A stretch of 64,000 bases of DNA from Alphaproteobacteria bacterium (lineage in GTDB: Bacteria > Pseudomonadota > Alphaproteobacteria > CAAHEQ01 > UBA3637), in contig JAGDDD010000013.1 of assembly GCA_017958225.1 (NCBI GenBank), positions 31,863-95,862 on the forward strand, read 5' to 3'. This document shows positions 24,272 to 40,268 of this stretch, one piece after another (the stretch's first letter is position 1; every line of letters begins with the position of its first letter). The translations under genes and the position numbers were made by a program. The notes beneath the pieces were generated by a model. That model saw nothing but the letters and a program-made list of their open reading frames with translations. It did no database searches and had not been told where the DNA came from.

Positions 24272-24362
24272 GGATGGGTGGCCGAGCGGTTGAAGGCGCA
24301 CGCCTGGAAAGTGTGTTTAGGTCTAAAGCCTAACGCGAGTTCGAATCTCGCCCCATCCGCCA
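24272..24362 (+). tRNA. tRNA-Ser (anticodon GGA), long variable arm, encoded CCA
   Basis: GGATGGG acceptor stem with complementary CCCATCC-G-CCA. Anticodon stem CACGC/GTGTG with loop CTGGAAA. Long extra arm, and a T-arm GGTTCGAATCC-like (GAGTTCGAATCTCG). Confidence 0.9.
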
Positions 24363-24367
24363 TTTAG

Positions 24368-24398
24368 CAAAAACAGCTCCTAATGGGGCTGTTTTTTT
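24368..24398 (+). terminator. Intrinsic terminator after tRNA-Ser (AAAAACAGCTCCtaatGGGGCTGTTTTTTT)
   Basis: Hairpin plus T-run 6 nt after the tRNA 3' end. Confidence 0.5.
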
Positions 24399-24403
24399 AT
24401 GCC

Positions 24404-24444
24404 TAATAAAATTGTATAGACAAAATAATTTTTATGATTACAAT
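24404..24444 (+). promoter_or_regulatory. Conserved palindromic promoter/operator element, copy 1 (TAATAAAATTGTATAGACAAAATAATTTTTATGATTACAAT)
   Basis: One of three near-identical 40-41-bp elements (24404, 27463, 29035). Half-sites TAGACA/TGTCTA double as -35 TAGACA and -10 TACAAT with a 16-nt spacer. Confidence 0.5.
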
Positions 24445-24462
24445 GACGGATGGAGAGAGTCA

Positions 24463-26580
24463 TTGAAATACGGACGCGCTTTTGTGAAATTATGTCTGGT
24501 CCTGATCCTGTGCCTAGGATTGGGCGCATCAGTGGCGTATGCTCAAAACCAGAAGACCACGCCGGCGCCAACGACCTTGCAATGTGGCGCGAGGGACGCA
24601 TGCCGGCCGGCCATGGAGGCCTGGTGTTATCAAAACAAGACGATATTGGATCGATATCTGACCGGTAAGATTTTAAAAAGACCGCCTTCTGTGTGGCGTA
24701 AAATTGCTAGTTTTGTTTTTCTAAATTCCTCTCTTGGCGGTTTGACTTATAAATACATTATCTCGCGCCTCGTCGAAGTCGATGTGACCACGGACGAATA
24801 TTACCGGTATTTGGATCAGGTCAATTGTCAACAACAGTTTTGTTGTTTTGCTTTGGGCGTGGATAAAGGCCTGTTGAAAGATTTTTGGGACATATGGCAT
24901 GGCTCGGACATTGAGGATTTGGATAATGCTTATAATCCGGTGTGGGAGCTGACTAAATCCAAAGACTATTTGTCTAGGGAAGGATTCACGCAGGGATATG
25001 AAGATCAAATCAAGAAAGATATTGACGGACTGGATGTGCCCGAGAATATCAGAAAAGCCTTGAAAAAAGGCGTCGATAAAGGGTGGTCGCCTTATCAAAC
25101 TTTGGCTGCCATGACTTCAGAGATGTTGGAACGCTACAAAGGCTCCGGCATTACTAAACAACTTTGGAACTTTGTCAAACATTCGTTTGGATCGGCCTGG
25201 GAAAGCGTCGTCAATTCGCTGCGAAAATCCGAATTCGCTGAAGCGGAAAAAAACGGAAATGTGCTGGAATGCCCCTATATTTTGCAGGGCATTTTTGATC
25301 AGGTCCACACCAGCGTTGATTGTTGGTTGTGTCCTTTGTTGGAAGACATTTTTGTTTCCGGCAACGCGTTTGCCTCGGCGTTATACACGCAAATCAGCAA
25401 AGCGATGCTGGCGTTGCTGGGCGTGTTTGCCGCTCTGACAATTATGTGGATGGTTTTCCGCGTCTTAGCAGACTTTTCCGGCAAAGAGTCGCGCGCCTTT
25501 ATCAAAAAAACTTTCTTTTTATGTTTGCGCGTGGCGATTATTGCCGTGATTTTAGTGCAATCGCCCAAAGTCGTCGGAGATTTGTTCTTTACGCCATTTG
25601 TGCATTTAAGCACAGGTCTTGGGATGGAGGTGATGGCGGGCACGCAGTTGGAGGTCAATCACGCGCATCTCAACTATTTCAAAGAAAACTTTAATAACGA
25701 AGATAGCGTTATGGGCTGCACACATTCGCACCCCGATATTTGGTCGAATGAGCAAAAGTTGATGTTTTCAAAGACAACCTGTAATACTTTGGTTGGCTTG
25801 GTGCAACTTATGTCTATTGAAATAGCAACGCCCTTCCACTATGGCCAGACACTTATGTCTTACGCCTTTAGCCACGGTCGGCCATCGGAAATTATGCCGA
25901 AATTTAAACTCTTTTTCACCGGCCTGGTGATTGTGATTATTTTTGTCGTGCTGTTGGTGGCTATTCCGTTTAAGATTGTGGATATTTTTGTGCAGTTGGT
26001 CGCTTTGTGCGCCTTAAGCCCGTTGGCCATTACGTTGTTTGCGTTCCCCGCGACTCGTTCGTATACAAAGGGTGTGTGGAAGATGTTCACCAGCTGCCTG
26101 TTGCAATTGGTGATGGTGTCATTGATGGTCGCGCTGGCCGTGGCTTTCTTTACCGGCAAGACGGATGATGAGACGTTAGCGCTGTTTCTACAAAATCGCA
26201 ATGACGAGGCCTATCAACGCATTGGATTAGGCAGTATGTCCTTTTTGGGTTTGATTGCGTTGGGCTATGTCGCATATAAGTTGCTGAACAGAGCGGTTGA
26301 GTTCGCCGAGCAATTAGGCAGTGCGGTCAAATTGGCTATGTTTGAGCCGATGACCCGGGCGACGGCCGCCACGACGGCTAAGGTTGCGGGAGAGTTCACG
26401 GGCGCTGTTGCTGGTCCAACCATAGACAAAGGCAAAGACTGGGCCAAAAAGCAGGTGGATAAAGGCACAGCCGCCTTGAAACGCCCTGTCAGAAGAGGGC
26501 TACGCAACGGCGCTTATGTTGTCGTCAAAAGCGCCTATCAATTTAAAGATAAATTTAAAGAGTGGCTTAAATCGATATAA
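24463..26580 (+). CDS. Paralog 1 of a 5-member tandem family of large polytopic membrane proteins (putatively VirB6/TrbL-like). Signal peptide and Cys-rich periplasmic N-domain
   Basis: The N-terminus KYGRAFVKLCLVL... is conserved with paralogs 2 and 3. Motifs C..C.P.MEAWC.QN, DCWLCPLLE, MGCTH...TCNTLVGLVQ, VPFKVVDIFVQL and LFAFPATR.YT are shared. The TTG at 24463 follows GGAGAGAG; the ORF-track start at 24412 lies inside the promoter palindrome. The family assignment is tentative. Confidence 0.5.
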   Translation: MKYGRAFVKLCLVLILCLGLGASVAYAQNQKTTPAPTTLQCGARDACRPAMEAWCYQNKTILDRYLTGKILKRPPSVWRKIASFVFLNSSLGGLTYKYIISRLVEVDVTTDEYYRYLDQVNCQQQFCCFALGVDKGLLKDFWDIWHGSDIEDLDNAYNPVWELTKSKDYLSREGFTQGYEDQIKKDIDGLDVPENIRKALKKGVDKGWSPYQTLAAMTSEMLERYKGSGITKQLWNFVKHSFGSAWESVVNSLRKSEFAEAEKNGNVLECPYILQGIFDQVHTSVDCWLCPLLEDIFVSGNAFASALYTQISKAMLALLGVFAALTIMWMVFRVLADFSGKESRAFIKKTFFLCLRVAIIAVILVQSPKVVGDLFFTPFVHLSTGLGMEVMAGTQLEVNHAHLNYFKENFNNEDSVMGCTHSHPDIWSNEQKLMFSKTTCNTLVGLVQLMSIEIATPFHYGQTLMSYAFSHGRPSEIMPKFKLFFTGLVIVIIFVVLLVAIPFKIVDIFVQLVALCALSPLAITLFAFPATRSYTKGVWKMFTSCLLQLVMVSLMVALAVAFFTGKTDDETLALFLQNRNDEAYQRIGLGSMSFLGLIALGYVAYKLLNRAVEFAEQLGSAVKLAMFEPMTRATAATTAKVAGEFTGAVAGPTIDKGKDWAKKQVDKGTAALKRPVRRGLRNGAYVVVKSAYQFKDKFKEWLKSI

Positions 26581-26588
26581 TTCCGACG

Positions 26589-26819
26589 TTAAGTGTGTGT
26601 GCGATTTTGCGTGGTTGGTGTGGGCGCCGCGTTTTCGTTGATCTGTTCCTGTGGAGAAGGTTGCGCTGTTTTACTGCGCTCGTCCAGCGCTTGTGTCATC
26701 TGTCCTGCCGAAGATTCTTTGAAGCTGGCGATTTGTTTTATTACGTTGGGCACTTCCTTACACAATGTGTTTCGTCGAGCACCAAGGTTCTCTCCTATCT
26801 TTTCCAAATTGTCGCTCAT
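26589..26819 (-). CDS. Hypothetical small protein (76 aa)
   Basis: ORF with an RBS-like context, convergent with paralog 1. No family recognised. Confidence 0.35.
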   Translation of the reverse strand: MSDNLEKIGENLGARRNTLCKEVPNVIKQIASFKESSAGQMTQALDERSKTAQPSPQEQINENAAPTPTTQNRTHT

Positions 26820-26828
26820 AATGTCTCC

Positions 26829-27446
26829 TTATATTGTTAAATTTTTTAAAAATTGGGCCAGTTCATCGTTCCACCGCTTGCCTTTGTCCGCGCTGATAAT
26901 GGTTTTGCCTTTCTCATCTGTTGTTATAATTGGCGAAAAATAAGCCGGAGTCGTTGTCAGCAATTCCCAGGCCTTGTCAGGTTGATGGGCGGCCATATTG
27001 ATATAGTTCAGCAACAGGGCGTGCGCATCCACCGGGAACTTGGCCGCTTTGATTTTTTCTTCACAAGCGGCGATAATGGCATCACGATCGGCCAGATAAT
27101 TGTTGAGTTGCTTGAGGGCTTGTTTGCCTTCGGCCAATAATGTGCCATCCAGGCGCGGGCGTTTCGTTGGGTCCATCAAACCAATCACTTCCCCCAAAAG
27201 CAAACGCCAAAAGGATGTCGGCGACGGATATTTTTTATCCAGGCTGGCGGCCATGGCTTCCGGATTTGGGTCTTCCACTTCCAACAGAGAACAGGCGGTA
27301 TCCACCAAATCCTGCATCATTACCTCTTCGTCCGGGTCTTGTTCCACCTCTTCCAGGGTTAAACTGAAATCGGGGGGTGGCTCAATGAGGTCTTGATTTT
27401 CCCACAAAGCCTTGTATAAGCTGGTAATAAGTTCTGTTTGCGCCAT
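26829..27446 (-). CDS. Hypothetical acidic protein (~205 aa from MAQTELITSLYK...)
   Basis: The ATG at 27446 follows AAGGA. Divergently transcribed from the paralog 2 promoter/operator. Confidence 0.5.
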   Translation of the reverse strand: MAQTELITSLYKALWENQDLIEPPPDFSLTLEEVEQDPDEEVMMQDLVDTACSLLEVEDPNPEAMAASLDKKYPSPTSFWRLLLGEVIGLMDPTKRPRLDGTLLAEGKQALKQLNNYLADRDAIIAACEEKIKAAKFPVDAHALLLNYINMAAHQPDKAWELLTTTPAYFSPIITTDEKGKTIISADKGKRWNDELAQFLKNLTI

Positions 27447-27462
27447 GGTCTTTCGTCCTTCT

Positions 27463-27502
27463 TTATAAAATAGTATAGACAAAAAAATTTTTATGTCTAC
27501 AA
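27463..27502 (+). promoter_or_regulatory. Conserved palindromic promoter/operator element, copy 2 (TATAAAATAGTATAGACAAAAAAATTTTTATGTCTACAAT)
   Basis: See copy 1. Lies between divergent genes. Confidence 0.5.
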
Positions 27503-27527
27503 TAAAAATGTTTGGAGAAATAAATCG

Positions 27528-29021
27528 ATGCGCAAGTATGCCTTTTTCAAAATATGTGTTGTAGCGCTTTCCGGGCTCATGCTGGCCCTGTGTGCTTCGC
27601 CTGCGCAGGCCGAGGAGACGTCCTGGTGCCCCAAAAGATCCACATGTAATCCAGTTATGGAGGCGTGGTGTCGGCAAAACGCAGAGATATTGAAAACCGC
27701 TGCCGATGAAGGTAAGAAGTATGTTTATCACGATGTGCAATGTGATAAGGCCGGGTGTTGTGTTGAACCGTTAGAGAAAACCGGACCTGGCGCGGGTATT
27801 GGCGGAGCTACTTATACTCAAACATATACCGTTTTCCCGGCATTTTTACAGGCGCTTGTTGATAAAAATCGTGCTAATGTGGATTGTTGGTTGTGTGGTT
27901 TGTTGGAAAGTATTTTTGTGCGCGGGGATTTATTGGCGACGCGCCTGTATACCTCCATGAGCCACATTATGTTGTTCCTTTTGGGCGTCATGACCACGGT
28001 GACGCTGTTGTGGTTTGCGTTCCGTGTATTCGTGGATTTTTCCGGTAAAGAATCGCGCGCTTTTTTACAAAAATCAACCGGCTTGTTTGCGCGCGTTGCC
28101 ATTATTGCGCTGATTTTGATTCAATCCCCCAGTTCGGTCGGTAATTTCTTTTTTGCCCCCTTTATTTCTTTGGGAACTGGGTTGGGATTGGAGATGTTGG
28201 CCGTGTCGGCCGGCGGGCAGGAAGCGTCTCATCCGCATATTACTTATTTTACGCAACACCTTTATGATGAAGATTCTATTATGGGCTGCACGCATCAGGA
28301 GCAATCATTTTGGGATAATCATCCCGATTTGTTGTTGTCCAAAGCCACATGTAATATGTTGGTAGGCTTGGTCCAGATTATTTCGATAGAAGTTACGACG
28401 CCGATTAATTTTGGAATGGCGTATATGCGATTTTCTACGAACGAGCTGAGATGGGGATTTGTTCCGCATTGGGGGCCTTTTTTCTATGGGGCTCTTATGA
28501 TTATCGCCTTTTTCTGTATTTTGATATTGGTGCCGTTTAAGGTTATTGATATTTTTGTGCAGTTGATTGTGGCGTCCTGTTTCCTGCCCTTGGCTTTGAC
28601 CTTGTTCGCTTTTCCGGCGACACGCAAATATACGCAAGCCATGTGGAAGCTGTTTTTAGCCTGTATTATTCAATTGGTTATGTTGTCGTTGATGGTGGCC
28701 TTGGCTGTGAATTTATTTGTCGGCAGTGGTGGCGCAACCAATCAAGTCGTCCTGCCCTTGTTCTTAATGGGCGAAGATGAGGAAGCGTATAAAGCTTTGG
28801 CCATGGCCGGCAATGGTATTATTGCTTCGTTGGGCGCATCTTTCATAGCGTTTTATTTGATTACGCGAGCTGCCTCGTTTGCTAAACAGTTAGGTATGAG
28901 CATCAATTTGGGAACGGGCGACGCCTTACAAGATCCGTTTATGTCCGCGACGGCGAAGACCGCAGGTACGGCGGCCGGTGGGGTAAAAACGCTGTGGGAC
29001 AAAGCGACGGGTAACATATAA
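27528..29021 (+). CDS. Paralog 2 of the tandem polytopic membrane protein family (putatively VirB6/TrbL-like), shortest member (497 aa)
   Basis: ATG with RBS GGAGAAA. Signal peptide ...LALCASPAQA. Shared motifs WCPKRSTCNPVMEAWCRQN, DCWLCGLLE, MGCTHQ, VPFKVIDIFVQL and LFAFPATRKYT. Confidence 0.5.
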   Translation: MRKYAFFKICVVALSGLMLALCASPAQAEETSWCPKRSTCNPVMEAWCRQNAEILKTAADEGKKYVYHDVQCDKAGCCVEPLEKTGPGAGIGGATYTQTYTVFPAFLQALVDKNRANVDCWLCGLLESIFVRGDLLATRLYTSMSHIMLFLLGVMTTVTLLWFAFRVFVDFSGKESRAFLQKSTGLFARVAIIALILIQSPSSVGNFFFAPFISLGTGLGLEMLAVSAGGQEASHPHITYFTQHLYDEDSIMGCTHQEQSFWDNHPDLLLSKATCNMLVGLVQIISIEVTTPINFGMAYMRFSTNELRWGFVPHWGPFFYGALMIIAFFCILILVPFKVIDIFVQLIVASCFLPLALTLFAFPATRKYTQAMWKLFLACIIQLVMLSLMVALAVNLFVGSGGATNQVVLPLFLMGEDEEAYKALAMAGNGIIASLGASFIAFYLITRAASFAKQLGMSINLGTGDALQDPFMSATAKTAGTAAGGVKTLWDKATGNI

Positions 29022-29034
29022 GTTGGCGCCCGGT

Positions 29035-29075
29035 AATAAAATTGTATAGACAAAACAATTTTTGTGTCTACAATA
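29035..29075 (+). promoter_or_regulatory. Conserved palindromic promoter/operator element, copy 3 (TAATAAAATTGTATAGACAAAACAATTTTTGTGTCTACAAT)
   Basis: Best palindrome of the three (TTGTATAGACAAAA / TTTTGTGTCTACAA). Starts 14 nt after the paralog 2 stop. Confidence 0.5.
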
Positions 29076-29093
29076 GTGCTGTGGAGAGGCGAA

Positions 29094-31157
29094 TTGACAT
29101 ATAGGCATGCTTTTTTGAAACTGTGCACTGTTCTGGCCCTTTGTCTGGGGCTGGGGATTTCTGCGGCTCAGGCGGACGGCAGCAAGACATTGGGCTGCCC
29201 GGCCGGATCGCGTTGTAATCCGGTAATGGAAGGTTGGTGCCGGCAAAATGAAGCTATTTTATCCAAAAAATTATCCGGCAAGACGTTGAAACCTAAAGTG
29301 CGTATGGGTAATGTGTCGACTGTGACCAATGATTTGCTCGAGGTGTATACTTACTCTTCAACGATTGATTGCCACAGCTCATTTTGTTGTTTCCATTCTA
29401 GGACTGATACACAAGCAGCGTTGATTGGGGACATATGGGACGCCCTGAAAGAAGGCGCGGCTCGCACCAATCAACAGGTTAAAGACGCCAGGAAGGGCGA
29501 ATATCTTAGGCAAATCAAAGAATATACAAAACAATTGAAAGCCACGACAAAAGCGCTCAAAGAGCTGAAAAAGAAATTGGCTGCGAAAAATCAAACGAAA
29601 CCTACTGACCTGGACATCGACGCTTTGGGCCTTTCGGATGACATGGCAAACCAACTGAAAGAACATCTTGTCCAGGGCGATGATACGATAGATGATGCGT
29701 TAGCTGTGTATAATGAACAGCTTAAAGGTCGTTGGTGGAGAACACTGAAAGAACAGATAGCGCAGTCGTTGACAGATTTTTTAACCAATCCTTTTTTGAG
29801 CGGGCCGGTTCCCTTAATCGGAACGTTGGGGAGCAACGCTTGGGATGCGTATAAAGAGAAGAAAAAAGCCCAAGAGGAAGCCAATCAGAAGGCCAACGAA
29901 GGCGACGGAGAGGGCGGGGAAGACTCCGAGCAAGCCTCTGGCGAAACGGTGGATATGCCTTACTTCCTGTTGGCTATCTTGGATAAAAATAATGCGGCGA
30001 TTGATTGTTGGTTGTGTCCTTTATTGGAAAGAATATTTGTAATCGGCGACGGGCTGGCGACGCGTCTGTATGCGGTGATGCGTGATGGTATGTTGGCGCT
30101 TGTCGGCGTGGTTACGGTCTTGGTGATGATGTGGATGATTGTCAAAGTCTTTATTGATTTTACAGGCAAATCAGCCCGATCTTTTTTACAACAACTGGCT
30201 GGCTTTTTGGCGCGGGTGCTTATCGTAGCCCTGTTGTTGGTGCAATCTCCCAGCTTTATTGGCGAATGGTTCTTGACGCCGTTGATTAATTTTAGTGTGG
30301 GCATGAGCGTGCAATTTATGTCCGGCGAAGACATGACACAGTCGGCACATATCAATTATTTTAACGAACATTTCAATAAAGAAGATAATATTATGGGCTG
30401 CATTCACAGCACAGATTTTTGGCAAACAAATGAGGACTTGCTGTTCCCGAAAACAACGTGTAATACCTTGGTCGGGTTGGTGCAACTCATCTCCATAGAA
30501 TTGTCGACGCCTATTCAATATGGTCAGGCGCTGATAGCGTATGGTTGGTCGGATTTGAAATGGTTTATTTTCCCTCGTTTCACCGACATTATTGCCGGTG
30601 CCATTATGGCGGGCTTCTTCTTTATCTTGCTGATAGTGGTGCCCTTTAAAGTGGTGGATATTTTTGCGCAATTGGCCTGCGTCGGGTGCTTGTTACCTTT
30701 GGCCATTGTGCTGTTTGCCTTCCCGACCACGCGTAAGTATACCCAAAATATGTGGCAATTGTTTGTCGCCTGTATTATTCAATTGATGGTGCTGGCGTTG
30801 ATGGCGTCCATTGTGATTGCTATGTTCACGGCTGGCATGAGTCAATCCACAAATACCTCTGTTTTAGAGTTGTTTTTGGAAGGCAAAGATAAAGCGGCGG
30901 CTGATGCTTTGAAAATGGGCGGCGTTGGTATTTTGTTCTTTATTGCCATGGCGTTGCTCGGTTGGAAATTGATTGGTCAGGCGGGCGCCTTTGCGCAGCA
31001 GTTGGGTGGCGCGCTCAATTTAGGCTTGGGTCAAGCTTTGTCCGGCGCGGTCGGTTGGGCAACCTCACGTTTAGGCTTTGTGGTCGGCGGGGCGAGCGTC
31101 TTGGGCGTCAAGTTGATGAAGAAAAAAGAAGGCGGAGGAGAAGGAGGCGGCAGCTGA
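29094..31157 (+). CDS. Paralog 3 of the tandem family, with a ~190-aa Lys-rich coiled-coil insertion in the periplasmic N-domain
   Basis: TTG start after GGAGAGG (the ORF-track GTG at 29064 is inside the operator). Motifs GCPAGSRCNPVMEGWCRQN, DCWLCPLLE, MGCIH, VPFKVVDIFAQL and LFAFPTTRKYT. C-terminal Gly/Glu-rich tail. Confidence 0.5.
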   Translation: MTYRHAFLKLCTVLALCLGLGISAAQADGSKTLGCPAGSRCNPVMEGWCRQNEAILSKKLSGKTLKPKVRMGNVSTVTNDLLEVYTYSSTIDCHSSFCCFHSRTDTQAALIGDIWDALKEGAARTNQQVKDARKGEYLRQIKEYTKQLKATTKALKELKKKLAAKNQTKPTDLDIDALGLSDDMANQLKEHLVQGDDTIDDALAVYNEQLKGRWWRTLKEQIAQSLTDFLTNPFLSGPVPLIGTLGSNAWDAYKEKKKAQEEANQKANEGDGEGGEDSEQASGETVDMPYFLLAILDKNNAAIDCWLCPLLERIFVIGDGLATRLYAVMRDGMLALVGVVTVLVMMWMIVKVFIDFTGKSARSFLQQLAGFLARVLIVALLLVQSPSFIGEWFLTPLINFSVGMSVQFMSGEDMTQSAHINYFNEHFNKEDNIMGCIHSTDFWQTNEDLLFPKTTCNTLVGLVQLISIELSTPIQYGQALIAYGWSDLKWFIFPRFTDIIAGAIMAGFFFILLIVVPFKVVDIFAQLACVGCLLPLAIVLFAFPTTRKYTQNMWQLFVACIIQLMVLALMASIVIAMFTAGMSQSTNTSVLELFLEGKDKAAADALKMGGVGILFFIAMALLGWKLIGQAGAFAQQLGGALNLGLGQALSGAVGWATSRLGFVVGGASVLGVKLMKKKEGGGEGGGS

Positions 31158-31158
31158 T

Positions 31159-33063
31159 ATGCGTAACTTTTTCCACTCCTTGAAAATATGGGTCACCACC
31201 CTGTTACTTCCCGGGCTGTTGCTGGGGTGTGCAGCGGCGAAAGTCGAAACAAGCGCCACAACAGATGAGTGTGTTTCTTGCGACTTGGCAGTGACCATTT
31301 TTGACGCCATCAATAGTTTGGCGGAAAACGTGATGCAAAATATGTGTCACATAGGTTTGGTTTTGTTGGGTATTTGTTATGCGCTGTGGTTGTTGATTGC
31401 GGTCAGCAACGGTTTGTTGAAAGGCCAACGTGTGGACCGCGACTTCTTTATTATCCAGGTGACGATGTTGGCGAAGGTGGTAGGCGTTGGGATTTTGCTG
31501 TCCAACGTCGATTTCCTGTATTACATTTGTCAGACGATTATCAATCCGTTTTTGCGTGTCTTCTTTGATTTTGCCGCCTGGATTATGCGACAAGGTGCAG
31601 AAACGTCTGGCTTGGCGACCGGCCACAATTTGCCGGCCAATCCGGCCAGAGCTTCCAATGTCTTGGATCCGTTGCTGATTGCAAGTGTGCGGACGGTTGT
31701 CTTCTATATTCAAATCTTTATCGACACCTTAAGACTTTGGGGCGCACGGTTTTACATTGAATGGCCCATTAATGCCGTGGTTGGCTGGTTGGGTCTTTTT
31801 GTGATTTTGTTAAGTTACACTATGTCGTTGGCCTTTTCGTTCCTTTTGTTGGAGCCATTCTTCCGCTTGGCGTTGTTTTTGGTGTTGATGCCGGTGTGGG
31901 CTGTGGCTTGGTGTTTTTCGGCAACACAGGGGATGGCCATAGCCGCGATGAAAAAGATTGTTGTGGCGGCCGGCCAGATGTTTTTAACCTCCATTTATTT
32001 TGCCATCTTATTTATTTTCATTGTCGCCTATACCTCGTATTTGGATATCCCGTCGCTGGCTCTATCTCATCCCATTATGTTGGCGTGGTCAGCGCAAGGC
32101 AATATCTCCGCTTGGCTATATTTCATTTCCTTCTGCCTGTTGTATTATTTCTTACAGGGGATGAATACATCCATTGGCTATGTTTTAAACGAAGATTTGA
32201 GTAGCTTTATCGGTCATGATTTCTTGAAGGGCTTGGATGGGTTGATTAAGCAAATGATTAATCTGATCAAGTTGCATGTTAAACTGGCCAAGGAAGCCCT
32301 GAAGATTGCCGCATGGACTGTGGCTACGGTTGCAACCGGCGGTGCGATGGCTGTGCCTGCCGCAACCAAGGCTACTATCAGAGCTACGCTTGCCGCGATT
32401 AAGACGACGGTTAAGACCGCTGCCAGACTCGTAGCTATGCAGACGAAACGGGTGATCAAAAGCGCCTTTACGGCGACAGGTCGCATGCTCAAGAAGGCGG
32501 CCATGTCCGTTGGCAAGACCATACAGGCTATGGGTCGGTCTGTCTGGAACGGGGTCAAGAGATTTGCGACAAAGGCCGGCATTCCCAAGATGGCCAAAAA
32601 ACTGGTATCTGCTTGGCGTATTGCCAAACAATGGACTGCCAACGGCTTCAACTGGGTGCGTTCTGCGCCGCGTAAACTGTTTGAGCGTCTGAAGAATTTC
32701 AACTTCCTCGAGTGGTTGAAAAAATTGGGCAGGAGAAGGACGCCTTCGCCCATCAAAAAAAGCTTTGTCCAAAGAATCCGCGACTTCTACAGGCGTAAAA
32801 AAGCGTCTCCTCCGCCCCCGCGGCCACGCCCGAAGACAGAAGAGAAAAAGCCTAAGCCCAAGAAGAAAAAGCCGTTGTGGAAACGCATTGCCGACAGATG
32901 GTTGAAAAACACCGGCTGGGTGGATGCGCAGGATAACGGAACTTACAGCAATATGAACGCTGTCCGAGATACGGTCAACGAAGAAGGGGAAGAGCAGCGG
33001 AGCCCGTCTCACCACGACTATACAAAGGGCGGCTCGTCTTCCGAGTCGGACGAAGGGAGTTAA
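31159..33063 (+). CDS. Paralog 4 (divergent) of the tandem family. Lipoprotein-type signal (LLGC), polytopic core, basic/Pro-rich C-terminal tail
   Basis: The core aligns by eye to the paralog 1-3 block: DECVSC...IFD...LVLLGICYALWLLIAVSNG...DRDF matches DCWLC...IFV...LLGV...MWMVFRV...SRAF. Starts 2 nt after the paralog 3 stop, consistent with an operon. Confidence 0.4.
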   Translation: MRNFFHSLKIWVTTLLLPGLLLGCAAAKVETSATTDECVSCDLAVTIFDAINSLAENVMQNMCHIGLVLLGICYALWLLIAVSNGLLKGQRVDRDFFIIQVTMLAKVVGVGILLSNVDFLYYICQTIINPFLRVFFDFAAWIMRQGAETSGLATGHNLPANPARASNVLDPLLIASVRTVVFYIQIFIDTLRLWGARFYIEWPINAVVGWLGLFVILLSYTMSLAFSFLLLEPFFRLALFLVLMPVWAVAWCFSATQGMAIAAMKKIVVAAGQMFLTSIYFAILFIFIVAYTSYLDIPSLALSHPIMLAWSAQGNISAWLYFISFCLLYYFLQGMNTSIGYVLNEDLSSFIGHDFLKGLDGLIKQMINLIKLHVKLAKEALKIAAWTVATVATGGAMAVPAATKATIRATLAAIKTTVKTAARLVAMQTKRVIKSAFTATGRMLKKAAMSVGKTIQAMGRSVWNGVKRFATKAGIPKMAKKLVSAWRIAKQWTANGFNWVRSAPRKLFERLKNFNFLEWLKKLGRRRTPSPIKKSFVQRIRDFYRRKKASPPPPRPRPKTEEKKPKPKKKKPLWKRIADRWLKNTGWVDAQDNGTYSNMNAVRDTVNEEGEEQRSPSHHDYTKGGSSSESDEGS

Positions 33064-33065
33064 AC

Positions 33066-34883
33066 ATGTTTAAGAAGCTGTCTTTCAAAAAGCGTTCCCT
33101 TTTATTTGTCGAGGCCGTGTTGTTGGCGTTGGTGGCCTGGGGTCTGGTTTCTCTGCCGCCCTCCTTTGTGACGGTTGCCGGGATCGTTGCTTGGTGTATG
33201 GTGGCGCTGTTGTTGATTGTGGTTATAGGCACATATTGCGTGTATAAACATCGGCATTGGTTATGTTTCCTCGGTTGTTTGTTCATCATGGCCGGCGCTG
33301 CGCACGCTGATATTGCTTATATTCAAGTTGAGCCTATGTCTGAAGGGGAAAATCAATGTCATGTCGTGGCCAAAGCCAGGACCGCTGCAGAAGGGGACAG
33401 CGAGGTGACGCAAGAACAACTAGACACCTGGATGCAAGAGGGTCTTGATATTTTCAAACCGTTCCAGTGTGACGAATGTCAGAAGCAACATGTATCATCA
33501 GAATACGAAACCAAAATGAAGCAGATGTCAGCCCAGAAAGGCCTGCTGGAAACCGAAAAGCCTTGGGATGACGAGAAGAAAAAACAGGTGTTTTTAATCG
33601 AAGCCACTTTGGCTTATTATCAACACTGTAAAATGTTTGAAGATGCTGATGGCTGCAAAACCCCGCGTCAATATGCCGAAGACGATCAAAAAGATTGTTA
33701 TACTTGTATGTTGGTTGGCTTGGCGATAACCGCCGTTGATGTCACTACTTTAATTTTTGAAGGATATGTCAGCCAGTATATGCTTGTTGTTCTGGCCTTA
33801 TGTTTTTGTTTATGGTTGATGTGGATGGTGGCGCGTTGCCTGATTGGTGTAGACGACGGGGTCACGTTTGCCGGCGCTGTTTTTGCTAAAGTTCTGTGGT
33901 TCATCCTGATTGTTTTGCTATTGCAACAGCCTGTATCGTGGGTGCTGGAAACGTTGACCGTGCCGTTTGCTCGCCTGAGCGGATGGATGGCACAAGTGAC
34001 GTCGGACGCTACCGCCTTGGGCGAAACGACGTCGCCTATTTCCACAACGGAAAGTCGGGTAGCGATGCCCAATTATTGTGCAGATAACACGCAATGGGAT
34101 AGTTCCAAATATCTGAAATATATCCCGCGGTATCAACAATCAGATAAAGATGTTTCCATCTTGGGGCCTGAAATTAAAAACGCGGTTATGTGCCCGGTAT
34201 ATAATAATTTCAAGGTTGTTGTCACTTCGTTGGCAGTAGGGCAAGCTTTAACGTGCCGTGCGCGCTATGTCAATTCGGGGACCCAGGCCGAAGACGAGGC
34301 TGACAAACATGTTTTCGCGGATGTGAATCTGATGGTAACCGGCTTGATATTGACTATTGCCAGTTATTTTATCATGTTCTTGCTACCTTATTTCATGGTG
34401 GAAGTTGTGCTGCGCATGGCGTTGTTCTTTGTGCCATTCCCGATTTGGTGTTTGGCTTTGATGTATAAGCCAACCCGTGGCTTTGCCACACGCGCATTTA
34501 CGGTGTTTGTGCATGCACTGTTGTGTTTGGTGACGTTGTCCATTGCGGCCGCCTTTATTACGGAAGCTTTTGTGACAGTGGTTACGCCGACGGCAGAAGC
34601 CGCCATCATTATCAGGAACGTGTTGAATGATCCGAAGGGCAGCGTTGAGCCGTTGGTCGAGCTGTTTAGTGTATCTAAAAACTTCAAAATGGCCATTATG
34701 TTCATTATTTTGAGTTGGTTTACGTATCGGATTTTGGCGTTGTCCGTGCTTTTTGCTGACAAGATATTAGGGGCGTCCATGGGGAGCGCGGCCTCGGCCT
34801 TTGGTGCGAGCGTGCACAAGAGCTTTATTGCTATACGTGATGCTGTGCGCAAGGCTATTACAGATGCCGCCACGCCTTCGTGA
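33066..34883 (+). CDS. Paralog 5 (divergent) of the tandem family, polytopic membrane protein
   Basis: DCYTCMLVGLA...LWLMWMVARCLIG...FAG block resembles the DCWLC...MWMVFRVLADFSG block. Starts 3 nt after the paralog 4 stop. Confidence 0.35.
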   Translation: MFKKLSFKKRSLLFVEAVLLALVAWGLVSLPPSFVTVAGIVAWCMVALLLIVVIGTYCVYKHRHWLCFLGCLFIMAGAAHADIAYIQVEPMSEGENQCHVVAKARTAAEGDSEVTQEQLDTWMQEGLDIFKPFQCDECQKQHVSSEYETKMKQMSAQKGLLETEKPWDDEKKKQVFLIEATLAYYQHCKMFEDADGCKTPRQYAEDDQKDCYTCMLVGLAITAVDVTTLIFEGYVSQYMLVVLALCFCLWLMWMVARCLIGVDDGVTFAGAVFAKVLWFILIVLLLQQPVSWVLETLTVPFARLSGWMAQVTSDATALGETTSPISTTESRVAMPNYCADNTQWDSSKYLKYIPRYQQSDKDVSILGPEIKNAVMCPVYNNFKVVVTSLAVGQALTCRARYVNSGTQAEDEADKHVFADVNLMVTGLILTIASYFIMFLLPYFMVEVVLRMALFFVPFPIWCLALMYKPTRGFATRAFTVFVHALLCLVTLSIAAAFITEAFVTVVTPTAEAAIIIRNVLNDPKGSVEPLVELFSVSKNFKMAIMFIILSWFTYRILALSVLFADKILGASMGSAASAFGASVHKSFIAIRDAVRKAITDAATPS

Positions 34884-34920
34884 TGCTTGTTTGGCCAGAG
34901 AAAATCTTATTTTTAAAAAA

Positions 34921-34950
34921 ATAGACAATTTTTGTTGTTTTTTTGTCTAT
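34921..34950 (+). promoter_or_regulatory. Related operator variant ATAGACAA-N14-TTGTCTAT (perfect 8-bp arms) upstream of the XRE regulator gene, followed by a TATAAAAT -10-like box
   Basis: Same TAGACA/TGTCTA half-sites as copies 1-3, but with a longer spacer. Confidence 0.45.
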
Positions 34951-34997
34951 TTTTGTGGTATAAAATCTGATATAAAAGTAAGGGTAAGGAGTTTTTT

Positions 34998-35957
34998 ATG
35001 GAAGAGATCGTATTTCCCAATCAGATTCGTATGTTAAGACGCATGCGCGGTAAGACCATGAAGTCGTTGGCAGATGAGCTGGGCGTCAGTTTGTCGGCTG
35101 TCAGTAAAATTGAAAAAGGCTATCGCGCCATTAACGAACAACAACTGCAACGCATTGTGACTTTTTTGGATTGCCCGAAAGAGAGCGTGTTTGTTTATGA
35201 AACGACATCGCAGCCGGAAGTTGTCCATTCGTGGAAAAAAGAACAGGAGCGTCGCAAACAAATCAACGAGACCAGCGGTCTGAAAACCTTAGGTGCCGGC
35301 TTGCGTTATTTGCGCGGGCAAAAACGTTTGACGTTGCAGGATGTGGCGCGTGGTGCGCGGATGACCTTGTCGGTTTATCATCGCATAGAAATGGGGCAGC
35401 GCGAGGTGGATGAGACGCAGTTACAGCGAATCGCGCATGCTTTGGGACTGAGCACAGAAGCTTTGCAAATGCAGGTGTATGAATTGGATATGGCTGGCGC
35501 GTTAAAGGCCTTTAAGAAGGGGGATAAACCAGGCATTTTTCACTCTAAAGGCGGTTACAATGACCTGCCCATGAATGAGAAACTGTTATACACGCCCAAG
35601 ATTGCGTTGGTGGGACAGGAAGACGGACAGGGCGTCTTGACGGTGGATGCGGACCATCCGGTGGATATGTTGGAAGCCGAGTTTTTACACATCCCCGCGT
35701 TGTATGCGTTGGTGGTGTCGGCACGTCGGTTGAGTTTGCCCGGCAAGCGCGTGATGTTATTTGTGGATAAAAGTTTGACGCCCGCTGTGGGAGATGTGGC
35801 GGTCGTCGAAGTGAGTGAAAAACAGGTAGAGGTTGGCTATTTGCGTCAAAAGGGAGAGGCTTTTTGTTTGGAAAATTGTGCGACGAATACGCCGTATGAC
35901 GTATCGCCCGAACAACTGAAAACGGCGCATAAAGTTACCTATATTCATTTCTTGTGA
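34998..35957 (+). CDS. Dual helix-turn-helix XRE-family transcriptional regulator (two HTH_XRE domains plus a ~120-aa C-terminal domain)
   Basis: Two copies of the XRE HTH pattern (LRRMRGKTMKSLADELGVSLSAVSKIEKG and LRYLRGQKRLTLQDVARGARMTLSVYHRIEMG). RBS AAGGAG before the ATG. Confidence 0.7.
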   Translation: MEEIVFPNQIRMLRRMRGKTMKSLADELGVSLSAVSKIEKGYRAINEQQLQRIVTFLDCPKESVFVYETTSQPEVVHSWKKEQERRKQINETSGLKTLGAGLRYLRGQKRLTLQDVARGARMTLSVYHRIEMGQREVDETQLQRIAHALGLSTEALQMQVYELDMAGALKAFKKGDKPGIFHSKGGYNDLPMNEKLLYTPKIALVGQEDGQGVLTVDADHPVDMLEAEFLHIPALYALVVSARRLSLPGKRVMLFVDKSLTPAVGDVAVVEVSEKQVEVGYLRQKGEAFCLENCATNTPYDVSPEQLKTAHKVTYIHFL

Positions 35958-35965
35958 GGTTGATT

Positions 35966-36835
35966 ATGGTTTATACAATCAGAGATTGGCAGAAAGCAAA
36001 GCAGAAAAAAGAAGGCGACGAAACCCCGATTGCGGTGGCGCGTCGGCTGATGAATCTGTTCCGCCAAATGGCGCATTTGGACGATCACTCTATGGAGCAA
36101 TTTAACCAAATGCTGTTGGCCGCGGATGCGGAAGCACTGACCGCTTTGAACTCAATTCCCGGCGGTAATGAATTACACGAATATCGCACTTATTTGCGCA
36201 ATAAAGCAGCAGGGGCTAATGCTTCTGGTGCGTCGGGTGCAGAGGATGCGGCGGACGAGCCGGTGGATATCACCAGCATGGAAGCTGCGTTGTTGCCGCC
36301 TGCCGAGGCTTTGTCGCCGTTGTGGAGCACATGGGGTGGCGGCGCTGTCGGCGGAGCCTCGACGGATCATGTCTTGACGGAAACAAAGATTCAATCGTTG
36401 GCCGGTGATATGTCAGCCTGCGCCGGCGAAACTTTGGCGTCTATTGAAAAGGACGCGTTGGCGCGCTATGACGATTATCAGCAAAAAATTATTCGTTTGT
36501 TGGAGTCGCTTGTCATTGATTCTGATGTGCAAAAAATGCAGACTAATTTGGCTGATACCGTTGAAAAAATCCATCGGGTTCAGGCGCAACAAAAACAAGA
36601 TTTGCAAGACAGTCAGCGTCGTAACAAGGCAGCTTTATGTGATACCATCAATCAGCGGGCTATCGCGATTTTACATGGGCAAAGTGCCAGTGCGCCGCAT
36701 ACTTTTGACGAGGTTGTGATTGAGGAAATGACCGAAGCCGATAAACCAACATCCGAACAGGTGGCTCAATTGTTGCGTCAGCAGCAAAATGACGCCCCTA
36801 AGTTTTCGGTGCAACCAGTGGGCGAGGACGAGTGA
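35966..36835 (+). CDS. Hypothetical protein (289 aa), Ala/Gln-rich, coiled-coil-like
   Basis: ATG after GAGGT. Start-stop overlap with the XRE gene suggests co-transcription. Confidence 0.45.
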   Translation: MVYTIRDWQKAKQKKEGDETPIAVARRLMNLFRQMAHLDDHSMEQFNQMLLAADAEALTALNSIPGGNELHEYRTYLRNKAAGANASGASGAEDAADEPVDITSMEAALLPPAEALSPLWSTWGGGAVGGASTDHVLTETKIQSLAGDMSACAGETLASIEKDALARYDDYQQKIIRLLESLVIDSDVQKMQTNLADTVEKIHRVQAQQKQDLQDSQRRNKAALCDTINQRAIAILHGQSASAPHTFDEVVIEEMTEADKPTSEQVAQLLRQQQNDAPKFSVQPVGEDE

Positions 36836-36896
36836 ACTTTAAGCAAATATTAACTATGACGCGATACACTATAATTCAAAGAAAAAGGAGATAGAC

Positions 36897-38402
36897 ATGG
36901 TAAATGACCCTTCTTTACAAGCAGTAATCGATGCCTTGACAATGTATCAAAATGACCTGGAGACATTGCAGGCTGTGGTCAAGGCGGCAGAAGCGTCTTT
37001 GGGGGATGATTGGATCTCTCTGTTGCCTTCCGTTTTGGACAAGGCAGAATTAGAAGCGTCTCAAAAAGATTTGCTGAAGGAACGCGCCGATCATGCTATC
37101 CACTATTATGGTGCGACAGCCGCTTATTCCGAAATTCAAGAATATTTGAAAGATCCGGCGCAATTGGATAAAACGCAAGTGGCGGCCCGGTTGCCCGTCT
37201 TGGAATATTGGATGGAGTTTTTTGGCGACGAAGGCATGAACTTGGTGCGCACTTTGAAAACAAAGTTAGAGCCGGAAGAGGCTGCGTCATCTCCGCAATG
37301 GGATGCACAAGTGGAAAAAGTGCAGCAGGAAACACAAGAGGCCGAAGAAACGCCGGCTGTTGATGAACAAATGGTCGATGAATCTAAATTATTCGACAGC
37401 CCGGAAGGCACGCCGGCCGATGCGGTGGCTCAGGCGTTTGAAAATATCTTACGTCCGGATGGTAAGGCGGAACCGGAAGAGGTGGCCGAAGAGCCGGTTG
37501 AGCCTGCTCCCGTTGCCGAAGAAGCCCCCGCAGAAGTTGCTGTTAAAGAAAGTGCTGAAGAAGTGACCCCAGAGGCTGTTGAACAACCGGCCGAAGAGCC
37601 CGCCGAACAAGTGCAAGAGATTGCCGAACCGACATCTGTAGAGACGCCTGCGGAAACTGTTGAGGCGTCCGAGGAAGTGGCGCCCGTTGAACAGGAACCG
37701 GCCGCGGAAGAAATCAGTGCCCCGGAAATTGTGGAGCCGGCCCCGCAGGATGAAGTTGCCGAAATGCAAGAGCCTGCCGCCGACGATATCCCCTTGGACA
37801 AAGATTTCCCGACGACGTTGGAAGAGGCCGAAGCGCAAGCACAAGTTGAGCCCGTCCAGCGCGAAAACACAAACAAAGACTGGGAAGTGGAAAATGTGTT
37901 GCGTGAGTGGCACTTATACGAAGATGTCTTTGCCTGGTTAAATGCGCGCTCTGTGCGTTTGAAATTGTCAGACAAGAGAAACTATCCGTATTATGGTTTC
38001 TTGGTCGATTTAATGCGCACCTTGCATGATGATGCGCAGGCTTTGTTAGATAACGCTAAATATGAGGCGGTGTTGCCGACAGCGGTTGAAGGCGGTCGGG
38101 AAGCTATCGAAAGTTTGGTGGCCGCTTTGGACAAAGAGATTCTTGATTTGGCTGACGAATATCCTGCATCCGTGGAAGAACAGTTGAATCCTAAAAAGGT
38201 AGAAGATATCTTAGGTCCGTTGGACACCGGCCCTGAAGAAGATGTCGGACCGGATCCGAATGACTTTGAGGCGATTGAAGATCCTTATGAGGCTGCCAAG
38301 AAAGAAGAAGAGGCCAAAGAGGCCGCAGAAGAGGCAGCCAAAAAAGAAGAAAAGAAGTCCTCCAAAGAGAAAAAATCGAAAAAACAGGAGTCAGACGAAT
38401 GA
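36897..38402 (+). CDS. Highly acidic Glu/Pro/Ala-rich repeat protein (501 aa) with a Lys/Glu-rich C-terminal tail
   Basis: Low-complexity repeats of the form EEPVEPAPVAEEAPAEV... RBS AAGGAG. Confidence 0.55.
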   Translation: MVNDPSLQAVIDALTMYQNDLETLQAVVKAAEASLGDDWISLLPSVLDKAELEASQKDLLKERADHAIHYYGATAAYSEIQEYLKDPAQLDKTQVAARLPVLEYWMEFFGDEGMNLVRTLKTKLEPEEAASSPQWDAQVEKVQQETQEAEETPAVDEQMVDESKLFDSPEGTPADAVAQAFENILRPDGKAEPEEVAEEPVEPAPVAEEAPAEVAVKESAEEVTPEAVEQPAEEPAEQVQEIAEPTSVETPAETVEASEEVAPVEQEPAAEEISAPEIVEPAPQDEVAEMQEPAADDIPLDKDFPTTLEEAEAQAQVEPVQRENTNKDWEVENVLREWHLYEDVFAWLNARSVRLKLSDKRNYPYYGFLVDLMRTLHDDAQALLDNAKYEAVLPTAVEGGREAIESLVAALDKEILDLADEYPASVEEQLNPKKVEDILGPLDTGPEEDVGPDPNDFEAIEDPYEAAKKEEEAKEAAEEAAKKEEKKSSKEKKSKKQESDE

Positions 38403-39523
38403 AAAAATTGCTCGCTTTGCTGATGTTGTTGAGCCTCCCCGTCGGGGCCGTCGAACTGCATGATGTTGAAATGAACAAATTAAACATCGAAAAGGCGGTG
38501 CGGTGTCAAACAAGCACGCCGGCCTTGGAAGTGGTCCAAAGCGTCGTTGTGCAGCCGGGCGAATTGGTTTTGTGGCCTGTGGGCGGCGATACTTTGCCGG
38601 CCTTTAATGTGGACAAGTTTGAAGCTTCGCAAATGCCGTTGGATGCCGTGTTGCAGGAATTGGTGGCCGAAGCCGGTATCAAAGTATGTTCGGATGACGG
38701 TGTGTTTCCCAATATTGCGGTCAAGGGCTTGGAAGGCTCGTTGCAGGATGTTGTGTGGGAAATCGCTCGTTTAGGCGATGCCTTTGTGCGTTATGACGCG
38801 GTGGAAAAGACGTTGCACGTTGCGCGTCAAGCGACTTTTGAAGTGCATATGCCGGCGGGGCGTTTAGGCATGTATGCCATCATTGACGCTTTGCGCGGTG
38901 CAAAAGTTTTTGATATGAAGCCGGATTGGAGCGAAAATGTGCTCTATCTGAATTTGAACAGTGATACCTATGCCATTACGCAAAACCTGTTAGACACCAT
39001 TCGTCAACGACCGCAATTGTTGGTTTGGGACGTGAAGTTTTATCGCTTGTCTCCGGAGATTGCGGATTGGGAGCCGATTGTTAAACAATTCGGTGCTAAA
39101 CGCGTCAATTCTTCTTTGAACGGATTGGCCGGTCGCCTGTTGATTTCTGATCATCAGAAAAAAGGTTGGACAATGGTGCAGGATTTGGAGAAAAGAGGCT
39201 CGGTCACGCCGGTGTGTGAAGGAATTGCGGTCATGCCGGCCAACTTTGATGTGCTGTTTTCTTTAGGTTTGTGCAGTGACGGGCAGGGCCGTGACCTGGT
39301 GATGAATCTCAAGGGCGAGGTCTATGATACCGATAAGATGCAGACCAAGTTCTCTGTTTCCACAAAACAAGGCGAAATCACAGCCTTTGATGCCATTTAT
39401 GACATTGATGACACTTTGGATGTGATTGACTTGCCGAATACAATTTTTGGTCCAACTGCTGCACAGGTGGAATATTTTATTACAATTAAACCCCGCCTTG
39501 TGCGGTTGATGATAAGGGAGTAA
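38399..39523 (+). CDS. Exported protein with secretin-like features (N-terminal STN/secretin_N-like segment, C-terminal ...NTIFGPTAAQVEYFITIKPRLV), tentative
   Basis: Signal peptide MKKLLALLMLLSLPVGA. By-eye resemblance to secretin N-domain and C-terminal consensus. Too short (374 aa) for a canonical secretin. Confidence 0.3.
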   Translation: MKKLLALLMLLSLPVGAVELHDVEMNKLNIEKAVRCQTSTPALEVVQSVVVQPGELVLWPVGGDTLPAFNVDKFEASQMPLDAVLQELVAEAGIKVCSDDGVFPNIAVKGLEGSLQDVVWEIARLGDAFVRYDAVEKTLHVARQATFEVHMPAGRLGMYAIIDALRGAKVFDMKPDWSENVLYLNLNSDTYAITQNLLDTIRQRPQLLVWDVKFYRLSPEIADWEPIVKQFGAKRVNSSLNGLAGRLLISDHQKKGWTMVQDLEKRGSVTPVCEGIAVMPANFDVLFSLGLCSDGQGRDLVMNLKGEVYDTDKMQTKFSVSTKQGEITAFDAIYDIDDTLDVIDLPNTIFGPTAAQVEYFITIKPRLVRLMIRE

Positions 39524-39525
39524 TT

Positions 39526-40089
39526 ATGTCGGAACAACCTCGTTTTCCTATGCCTAACAGTTCTGATTTGAATAACATGCCGGCTGCGCATGCCCCGACG
39601 ATTCCTGATGAGCCGAAAGAGGAAGTGGCTCGGGCGTGGGCTGAAGATGCCAAACCTAAAGCGGCAGAAAAAACTATGCCGGACAGCAATGTGGTCGAGG
39701 ATTTGCGCTTGCCTGTGTCTTTATTGAAAACGAAAGTTTTCATTGCCATGATGATTGGTATATTTGTGGTCGGCATTTTGTTTGGTGCGGCTTTGTTCGG
39801 CGGTGGCAAACAAGCGGTCGTCTCGCAAGGCTTGTCCGGTGTTGTGGAAAATCCGGACGCCGAAAAAGGCTTGCGGCGTTGTGGTTATGCGCCACGTGGC
39901 GAACGTTGCGTTTTATATGTGATGAACAATATTCGCAAAGAAATCAAAGCCCAAGAATTATTTAAGTTAGTATCTCAATTGGCCAGTGTGTCCGAGTTCT
40001 TGATTCAGACGGCCAATGTGGGTTATGCCTCGACCATTATTCGGCCGGGTTATTTTGCTCAGTTTGTGATACCTGATTTGAAAAATTAG
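39526..40089 (+). CDS. Hypothetical single-TM protein with a Pro-rich N-terminus (187 aa)
   Basis: Starts 3 nt after the upstream stop. One hydrophobic helix (VFIAMMIGIFVVGILFGAALFGG). Confidence 0.45.
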   Translation: MSEQPRFPMPNSSDLNNMPAAHAPTIPDEPKEEVARAWAEDAKPKAAEKTMPDSNVVEDLRLPVSLLKTKVFIAMMIGIFVVGILFGAALFGGGKQAVVSQGLSGVVENPDAEKGLRRCGYAPRGERCVLYVMNNIRKEIKAQELFKLVSQLASVSEFLIQTANVGYASTIIRPGYFAQFVIPDLKN

Positions 40090-40268
40090 TGCGTTGTCAC
40101 CAACGTATAGTTTTCATCCACAGCGGTTTCTAAAGCGGCTTTATCTTCGGAATAAGCCAACAGTTCTCCGTGTTCTTCACGCAACGTCCAAACAAGACGA
40201 TTGTTGATTACGTCTTTGCGTATATAGACAATTTGCGGTGTATTTTCGGGCGTTTGAGAACTAATCAT
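40086..40268 (-). CDS. Small protein (60 aa) translationally coupled to ibpA, possibly a DUF1150-like Hsp20 partner
   Basis: ATGA overlap with the ibpA stop. This small-ORF-after-hsp20 arrangement is recalled from other alphaproteobacteria, so the call is low confidence. Confidence 0.35.
   Translation of the reverse strand: MISSQTPENTPQIVYIRKDVINNRLVWTLREEHGELLAYSEDKAALETAVDENYTLVTTH

Follow-up and report, generated by a model that had tools for sequence, protein, structure and literature searches.

A tandem array of five VirB6-like genes, with its own regulator and a secretin-like partner, in a conserved chromosomal module of gut Alphaproteobacteria

We analyzed a 64-kb stretch of an alphaproteobacterial contig (JAGDDD010000013.1; here called the window), concentrating on a block at 24272-40089 and on an operon upstream of it, at 11600-16062, that contains a virD4 gene. 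The window matches ruminant-gut metagenome contigs. The block is bordered on its left by a tRNA-Ser(GGA) gene (24272-24362, plus strand; found by ARAGORN and by the Rfam tRNA model at 56 bits), directly followed by a hairpin and a T-run (~24369-24399). Beyond these lie five plus-strand genes for VirB6-like proteins, which we sorted into three types: P1 (24463-26580, 705 amino acids [aa]), P2 (27528-29021, 497 aa, a minimal form) and P3 (29094-31157, 687 aa) are of type A, P4 (31159-33063, 634 aa) of type B, and P5 (33066-34883, 605 aa) of type C. The start codon of P4 lies 2 nucleotides (nt) past the stop of P3, and P5 tightly abuts P4. Two small genes are interposed between P1 and P2 on the minus strand, g76 (26589-26819, 76 aa) and g205 (26829-27446, 205 aa). 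An earlier note on this DNA had proposed this same layout of five same-strand tandem paralogs 3' of the tRNA gene, and our gene calls, profile searches, and pairwise identities agree with it.

All five proteins belong to the VirB6 (TrbL/VirB6) family. P1, P2, and P3 are 39 to 46% identical to one another, while P4 and P5 share 17 to 24% identity with these three. A profile built from P1 to P3 and distant relatives, with P4 and P5 excluded, recovered both P5 (E=3.5e-17) and P4 (E=1.1e-11). The view that P4 and P5 are divergent yet related to the first three thus holds, and judged by these comparisons the paralogy of the whole set lies far beyond chance. The assignment of P3 draws on alignment in addition to Pfam, and that of P4 on the independent profile, on composition, and on its match within the gene triads described below. 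Of the likeness to Pfam TrbL (PF04610, gathering score 25.9 bits) that the earlier note had expected, P1 (29.2 bits) and P3 (29.9 bits) scored above the cutoff, but P5 (22.7 bits) fell below it and P2 and P4 gave no match. Such weak scores are normal for the family: 27 of 58 sampled members match PF04610 weakly (E<=0.01), and the positionally defined canonical VirB6 of an Erythrobacter plasmid has no Pfam match either, which argues that the model is insensitive.

Topology and fold point the same way. A Kyte-Doolittle hydropathy scan gave each of P1 to P5 an N-terminal signal or transmembrane (TM) segment and 5 to 7 further TM segments (6 to 10 hydrophobic segments in all), consistent with a polytopic inner-membrane protein that has a periplasmic N-terminal region and at least five TM segments. 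The three-dimensional fold of VirB6 was found as well, and the fold match to TrwI was specific. At the level of sequence, a profile search of PDB sequences with the VirB6-like family returned nothing significant, with TrwI at E=6.1 only, and an hhalign comparison of the family profile with a single canonical plasmid VirB6 gave no match and is uninformative. An exhaustive profile search reached 1569 clusters at 50% identity, 969 of them at E<=1e-10, whereas the 58-sequence family profile and P2, used as word-indexed queries, had reached only 8 to 9 close relatives.

A CxxC motif is invariant across the 58 family members, and the motifs CWFCP, PFKLID, and FPATxxYTKKAW recur family-wide. The earlier note had given each protein a signal peptide and a Cys-rich N-terminal domain. 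This is true of P1 to P3, whose periplasmic N-domain is disulfide-rich, with eight periplasmic Cys residues ahead of the invariant CxxC; P4 and P5 depart from this description. P1 consists of a signal peptide, the Cys-rich periplasmic N-domain, an insert of ~150 aa, the CxxC, a multi-TM core, and a basic C-terminal tail, and P3 carries a charged, coiled-coil-like insert. P4 instead has a lipobox-like LLGC N terminus followed by the CxxC (residues 38 to 41), lacks a Cys-rich N-domain, and ends in a long basic tail; P5 opens with three hydrophobic segments.

Downstream of P5, on the same strand, follow the five genes that the earlier note had listed. The first encodes an XRE-family regulator with two helix-turn-helix (HTH) stretches (34998-35957). 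It is followed by g289 (35966-36835, 289 aa), an acidic cytoplasmic protein (isoelectric point [pI] 4.8) whose N-terminal domain (~80 aa) is conserved and whose tail is Q-rich and helical, as its alignment shows; homologues occupy the same position in 12 further loci. The next gene, g501 (36897-38402, 501 aa), encodes a very acidic cytoplasmic protein (pI 4.1) whose central region is rich in E, A, P, and V (E 25%, A 16%, P 12%); it has homologues at the same position in 11 further loci. We rejected the "EPA tandem repeat" that the note had seen in this protein, since the region is low-complexity sequence without a true tandem repeat. Then come g374 (38399-39523, 374 aa), an exported secretin-like protein, and g187 (39526-40089, 187 aa), a bitopic membrane protein by hydropathy and alignment, with a Pro-rich cytoplasmic N terminus, one TM segment, and a conserved C-terminal domain of ~95 aa bearing two invariant Cys residues. 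Homologues of g187 directly follow g374 in 8 loci.

The two minus-strand genes differ in their conservation. The g205 product is an acidic (pI 4.5) cytoplasmic protein and a conserved divergent partner of the array, as its homologues in 30 loci always lie on the minus strand just upstream of the first VirB6-like gene; it has no Pfam, PADLOC, or PDB match. The product of g76 is small, cytoplasmic, and fast evolving, with a positional homologue in the sister species L003 (28% identity over 53 aa) and no family match. Pfam, NCBIfam, and PADLOC scans of g205, g289, g501, g374, and g187, of the proteins g404, g201, and g157 of the virD4 operon, and of a further family, X, from related genomes gave only generic HTH matches, and profile searches of PDB sequences with the g374, g187, and g205 families returned nothing significant.

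The likeness of g374 to secretins, which the earlier note had pointed out, comes from predicted structure. The protein has a signal peptide and N0/N1-type ring-building domains, then a C-terminal beta domain. An AlphaFold2 model made from 28 homologues reached a pLDDT of 82 and a pTM of 0.80, and a Foldseek search with it gave 27 matches at E<=1e-3, all of them secretins (best, BfpB at 7.7e-10, probability 1.0). Besides secretins, the predicted structure resembles the T4SS (type IV secretion system) outer-membrane-complex proteins DotD and the N0 domain of Xanthomonas VirB7. In export and in the order of N0/N1 domains before a beta domain, g374 is like the secretins BfpB, PilQ, GspD, InvG, pIV, and RcpA. 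In this model the N0/N1 domains are solid; an outer-membrane barrel of 12 to 15 subunits, as secretins form, is putative.

Each type-A gene is preceded by a copy of a 41-nt cassette, a direct-repeat family of three members with 88 to 90% identity. The first (24404-24444, plus strand) lies before P1 and reads TAGACA-16 nt-TACAAT, the right half of its palindrome being degenerate; the second (27463-27503), before P2, contains the perfect palindrome TAGACA-N12-TGTCTA at 27476-27499; and the third (29034-29074, plus strand), before P3, has its palindrome at 29047-29070. A wider palindrome, TAGACA-N16-TGTCTA, lies in the promoter of the regulator (34922-34949). Exact TAGACA/TGTCTA palindromes were observed three times against 0.01 expected, and the window contains 10 copies of ATAGACAA where 1.2 would be expected. 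The -35 and -10 elements of the cassettes, which read TAGACA-16 nt-TACAAT, are embedded in the palindrome, and in a promoter scan the cassettes were the best sigma-70-like sites of the region (10/12 matches). The second copy holds face-to-face promoters for P2 (plus strand) and g205 (minus strand), with 10/12 matches on both strands. These elements also informed the choice of start codons: 24463 is the likely start of P1 because the alternative TTG at 24412 falls inside the cassette, and we preferred the shorter call for P3 (29094) because the GTG at 29064 falls inside the promoter element.

Conservation of these sites extends beyond the window. The first cassette is conserved in L003 and the second in L003 to L006, and a TTTTGTCTATTT box with an extended -10 upstream of the regulator is kept even in distant genomes. 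The regulator itself consists of two Cro/C1-type HTH_3 stretches (81.6 bits) and a C-terminal domain of ~160 aa. It is reasonable to suppose from the sequence that this adjacent dual-HTH protein controls the palindromic promoters, which are putative operators; the array would then have its own regulator and candidate operator, as the earlier note had suggested, with the repeated element standing before P1, P2, P3, and the regulator gene. An extra ATAGACAA-containing box is found at 40224-40246, between g187 and a convergent open reading frame (ORF) of 147 aa (40261-40704, minus strand). We also considered whether the virD4 operon belongs to the same regulon. The only nearby copy of ATAGACAA, at 11685, is inside g404 and provides no evidence for this.

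That operon, which lies 10 kb upstream of the VirB6 array, had been overlooked in the earlier note. It appears to comprise four plus-strand genes: g404 (11600-12814), encoding a membrane protein; virD4 (12824-14986), encoding a VirD4-type type IV coupling protein; and, contiguous with virD4, g201 and g157 (14987-16062), encoding small cytoplasmic proteins. The g201 gene begins 1 nt after the virD4 stop and is overlapped by g157 by 4 nt. The coupling protein matches Pfam T4SS-DNA_transf (184 bits), TraG-D_C, and TrwB_AAD_bind, and is full-length and intact, with 33 to 35% identity to alphaproteobacterial plasmid coupling proteins and a phmmer E value of 1e-100 to canonical VirD4. The real start of g404 is probably a conserved Met codon at ~11633, because the ATG at 11600 overlaps a TGGTATAAT extended -10. 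Here g404 adjoins virD4, but in other genomes its homologues belong to the divergently oriented arm of the module, and this shared neighborhood ties virD4 to the VirB6 genes and their partners. In the related loci that we fetched, g201 and g157 had no homologues, and no VirB11/T2SSE or VirB8-10 domain was found beside virD4.

The module is widespread. We surveyed one genome per species (32 loci), using a 16-sequence alignment as the query of the genome scan, and added 4 loci from a metagenome scan; related loci were covered with flanks of 10 kb or less. Nearly all of the 32 genome-scan loci belong to uncultured Alphaproteobacteria from the guts of humans, rabbits, and ruminants; in all, the module turns up in more than 30 further alphaproteobacterial species of the gut. 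Tandem VirB6-like genes, 3 to 6 of them, are present in each locus whose sequence reaches beyond a single gene. Wherever the flanks were covered, the order of the partner genes is constant, with g205 divergent upstream and the regulator, g289, g501, g374, and g187 downstream. Upstream, g205 is kept in about 25 of these loci, and downstream the regulator, g289, g501, and g374 are kept in about 11 to 14. The regulator follows the array in 16 loci (E down to 1e-97); in 13 loci besides the window its orthologues come directly after the array, with E values of 1e-66 to 1e-97. Many genomes continue the divergent arm with family X and then a g404 homologue. This conserved, unannotated family (360 to 730 aa; for example, at 6539-8599 in L020, 7277-9052 in L028, 7867-9009 in L012, and 6724-8634 in L041, all on the minus strand), which in many relatives separates g205 from the g404 homologue, is absent from the window. 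The most distant loci, L038 (1818-10724, "Acetobacter sp. 46_36") and L039 (1521-10428, "uncultured Rickettsiales bacterium UMGS1453"), have about six consecutive VirB6-like ORFs, one of 1030 aa, and then a dual-HTH regulator.

Across these genomes the arrays resolve into a triad of a large type A, a type B of 405 to 490 aa, and a large type C. P4 matches best the middle gene of other genomes' triads, and the strongest matches of P5 are mostly the last gene of an array. Read from these sequence matches, the array goes back to an A-B-C triad, and this lineage triplicated type A, P1 to P3 being recent duplicates. Independent amplification of type A took place in at least two more lineages, L029 and L033.

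On balance we lean, by a little, toward reading the block as the channel module of a T4SS-like apparatus that is divergent, resembles the Rickettsiales vir homolog (rvh) system in having its genes scattered along the chromosome, and has a novel secretin-like partner. By analogy with the VirB6 pentamer of R388, the A, B, and C subunits would form a hetero-oligomeric inner-membrane platform or stalk, and g374, perhaps together with g187, would form a periplasmic or outer-membrane ring. VirD4 would feed substrates into the channel, and the regulator would bind the TAGACA/TGTCTA palindromes that overlap the promoters, thereby setting subunit dosage and its own synthesis. VirB4 and VirB8 to VirB11 would be encoded elsewhere, as in the scattered rvh system of Rickettsiales, and the machine may serve contact-dependent export to other cells.

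Among described systems, TrwI/VirB6 of plasmid R388 (PDB 7o3v, chain F) is a stalk/inner-membrane subunit of a minimal T4SS. The present proteins share only 12% identity with it (the sequence match at E=6.1 mentioned above), occur as five paralogs of three types where R388 has a single copy, and add a signal peptide or lipobox, Cys-rich periplasmic domains, and long tails. The nearest likeness in gene layout is to rvh, whose hallmarks are a multicopy VirB6 and dispersed genes (PMC2653234, PMC11077975). Both have three to five or more tandem, strongly diverged genes with a VirB6/TrbL domain and extra flanking domains, and in both these are chromosomal, vertically inherited, scattered T4SS genes of an alphaproteobacterial host, with VirD4 at a separate site. 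Islet A of rvh, however, reads virB3-virB4a-virB6a-e (Gillespie et al. 2009, PMC2653234), whereas the array here has no virB3/virB4 leader: as the earlier note had observed, what precedes it is rpsF-rpsR-rplI-rpsU and tRNA-Ser, and in other genomes g205, X, and g404. Likewise, virD4, which in rvh closes a virB8-virB9-virB10-virB11-virD4 cluster, is not preceded here by virB8-11 but flanked by g404 and g201/g157; an invariant CxxC motif sets the present family apart; and the array belongs to a fixed module (dual-HTH regulator, three acidic proteins, secretin-like protein, and bitopic protein) that is not described for rvh. Duplicated VirB4, VirB8, and VirB9 and the lack of VirB5 are further traits of rvh.

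Several observations weigh against a scattered, rvh-like apparatus. A phmmer --max search with one canonical VirB2-B11 reference set found no VirB4, VirB2/3, or VirB8-11 in the window or in ~20 kb around ~36 arrays (39 loci and 4 metagenome loci were searched), and Pfam and NCBIfam scans of window proteins (Pfam covering the majority of the ORFs with 150 aa or more) found no T4SS core gene besides VirD4. To our knowledge, no ATPase other than VirB4 is shared by every T4SS; that the remaining genes are encoded elsewhere in the genome is an assumption. Nor do we know of any described T4SS that includes a secretin, or of a secretin barrel in DotD or VirB7. With 374 aa, g374 is small beside the secretins, and neither it nor its relatives match the Pfam Secretin (PF00263) and Secretin_N models or an NCBIfam secretin model; its Foldseek alignments span whole chains and full-length secretins, but the global TM-scores are low (0.13 to 0.31). 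Binding of the regulator to the putative operators is at the candidate level, and no relative of known function was detected for g205, g289, g501, or g187. The same facts leave some room for a self-contained hybrid, in which a secretin-like pore of g374 and a bitopic linker, g187, would join the A/B/C platform and VirD4. Such a machine, without the VirB7/9/10 outer-membrane core and possibly without VirB4, would be a previously unknown secretion architecture, and genome-reduced gut Alphaproteobacteria might use it for contact-dependent exchange with, or parasitism of, neighboring cells. It would account for the missing VirB4 and VirB8-11 genes, for g374 and g187 always following the array, for the restriction of significant g374 matches to secretins with alignments across their domains, and for module partners that all lack known families. 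Yet that absence is local only, and T4SS genes are scattered in Rickettsiales too (PMC2653234). Furthermore, no VirD4-dependent system is known to work without VirB4. We regard the hybrid architecture as unlikely, and equally so the lifestyle drawn from it.

The great divergence of the array from canonical VirB6 (Pfam scores at threshold, the null hhalign result, and no plasmid homologues), its family-specific motifs CWFCP and FPATxxYTKKAW, and the lack of adjacent core T4SS genes could also mean that the proteins do not secrete at all. They would then have taken on another role, for example in the envelope or in transport in a genome-reduced symbiont, among functionally unrelated lineage-specific neighbors, and VirD4 would be left over from an old conjugative element. 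We consider this doubtful, given that the fold match to TrwI is specific, that an exported protein with an N0 domain and secretin-like structure is strictly linked to the array, that g404 links the module to virD4, and that virD4 is intact, full-length, and part of an operon. An origin as a genomic island or as the remnant of an integrative and conjugative element inserted at tRNA-Ser, as the earlier note had proposed from the position beside the tRNA gene, is very improbable and already largely refuted. The block does begin 100 bp after the tRNA gene, and VirB6 and VirD4 are typical of conjugative elements. However, no integrase, relaxase, or transposase was present among the window proteins scanned, in line with the earlier note's own remark that the block has no integrase or transposase; no att-like repeat of the tRNA 3' end occurs in the window; and the GC content of the block (0.479) is that of its flanks (0.481 and 0.477). 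The variable presence at tRNA-Ser that an island would lead one to expect was not seen either. In L003 (~60 to 67% protein identity) all five genes and those downstream of them occupy the same rpsF-rpsR-rplI-rpsU-tRNA locus, and gene order and chromosomal locus are shared by L003 and L004. Across more than 30 species the module occupies different chromosomal contexts, always with the same partner genes, and a tblastn search of 72,556 plasmids with P1, g374, and the regulator found no match. The block is a vertically inherited chromosomal module and behaves as part of the core of its lineage rather than as cargo.

If the channel-module reading is right, the array is of interest beyond this genome. 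At present, arrays of several VirB6 genes count as a hallmark of the rvh T4SS of Rickettsiales (PMC11077975), and the layout appears to have been described only in bacteria of the Rickettsia type; in the literature that could be searched, these gut lineages appear to have no reported T4SS or VirB6 array, in keeping with the earlier note's suggestion of an undescribed module. For the gut order Rs-D84, reported as genome-reduced and probably partner-dependent, only "hypothetical membrane-bound proteins" were noted (PMC12306168, 2025). The same array solution in widespread uncultured gut Alphaproteobacteria, with its A-B-C logic, repeated and independent type-A amplification, regulator, and secretin-like partner, provides a second and independent set of data on the purpose of having several VirB6 proteins. 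It also offers a candidate mechanism for the interaction of gut bacteria with other cells, some related lineages being reported as metabolically dependent (PMC12306168), and it places seven conserved unannotated protein families in a secretion context.

The surroundings of the block are housekeeping genes. Upstream lie ppdK, the RNase P RNA gene, rplM-rpsI, and rpsF-rpsR-rplI-rpsU, and a leftward extension of the contig by 8.5 kb added housekeeping genes only; downstream lie dnaA, the genes for glycogen phosphorylase, gcrA, polA, and others. The presence of GcrA is diagnostic of an alphaproteobacterium. The dnaA gene (40769-42106, minus strand) directly follows the module. The cumulative GC skew climbs monotonically over all 64 kb, with no turning point (origin) visible beside dnaA in the window, and several related genomes have dnaB or ruvAB near the module instead of dnaA. 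Several ORFs had no family assignment, at 2609-4270 (minus), 49582-50655 (minus), and 52603-55324 (plus), with sizes of 553 aa (a faint TraG P-loop, E=0.019), 357 aa, 568 aa (weak DUF2207), and 336 aa.

A few features of the upstream flank deserve mention. The RNase P RNA gene (bacterial class A, 19823-20167, minus strand, 289 bits) lies between rplM and a gene for a small outer-membrane beta-barrel protein (19160-19750, plus strand) that weakly resembles both Surface_Ag_2 and the Adr adhesin of Rickettsia. The ribosomal protein S9 gene (20799-21470, plus strand, 223 aa) is matched by the S9 model over residues 100 to 223 only and carries an N-terminal extension of ~95 aa, called at the same length in metagenome contigs. 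A 365-aa protein at 21524-22621 (minus strand) shows faint similarity to MORN repeats and to the LIC20035 adhesin, and it and the beta-barrel protein are possible surface proteins. Lastly, genes for subunits of a Na+-translocating oxaloacetate decarboxylase (8053-10960) lie near that for pyruvate,phosphate dikinase (16179-18851), a proximity that fits an anaerobic, fermentative gut lifestyle.

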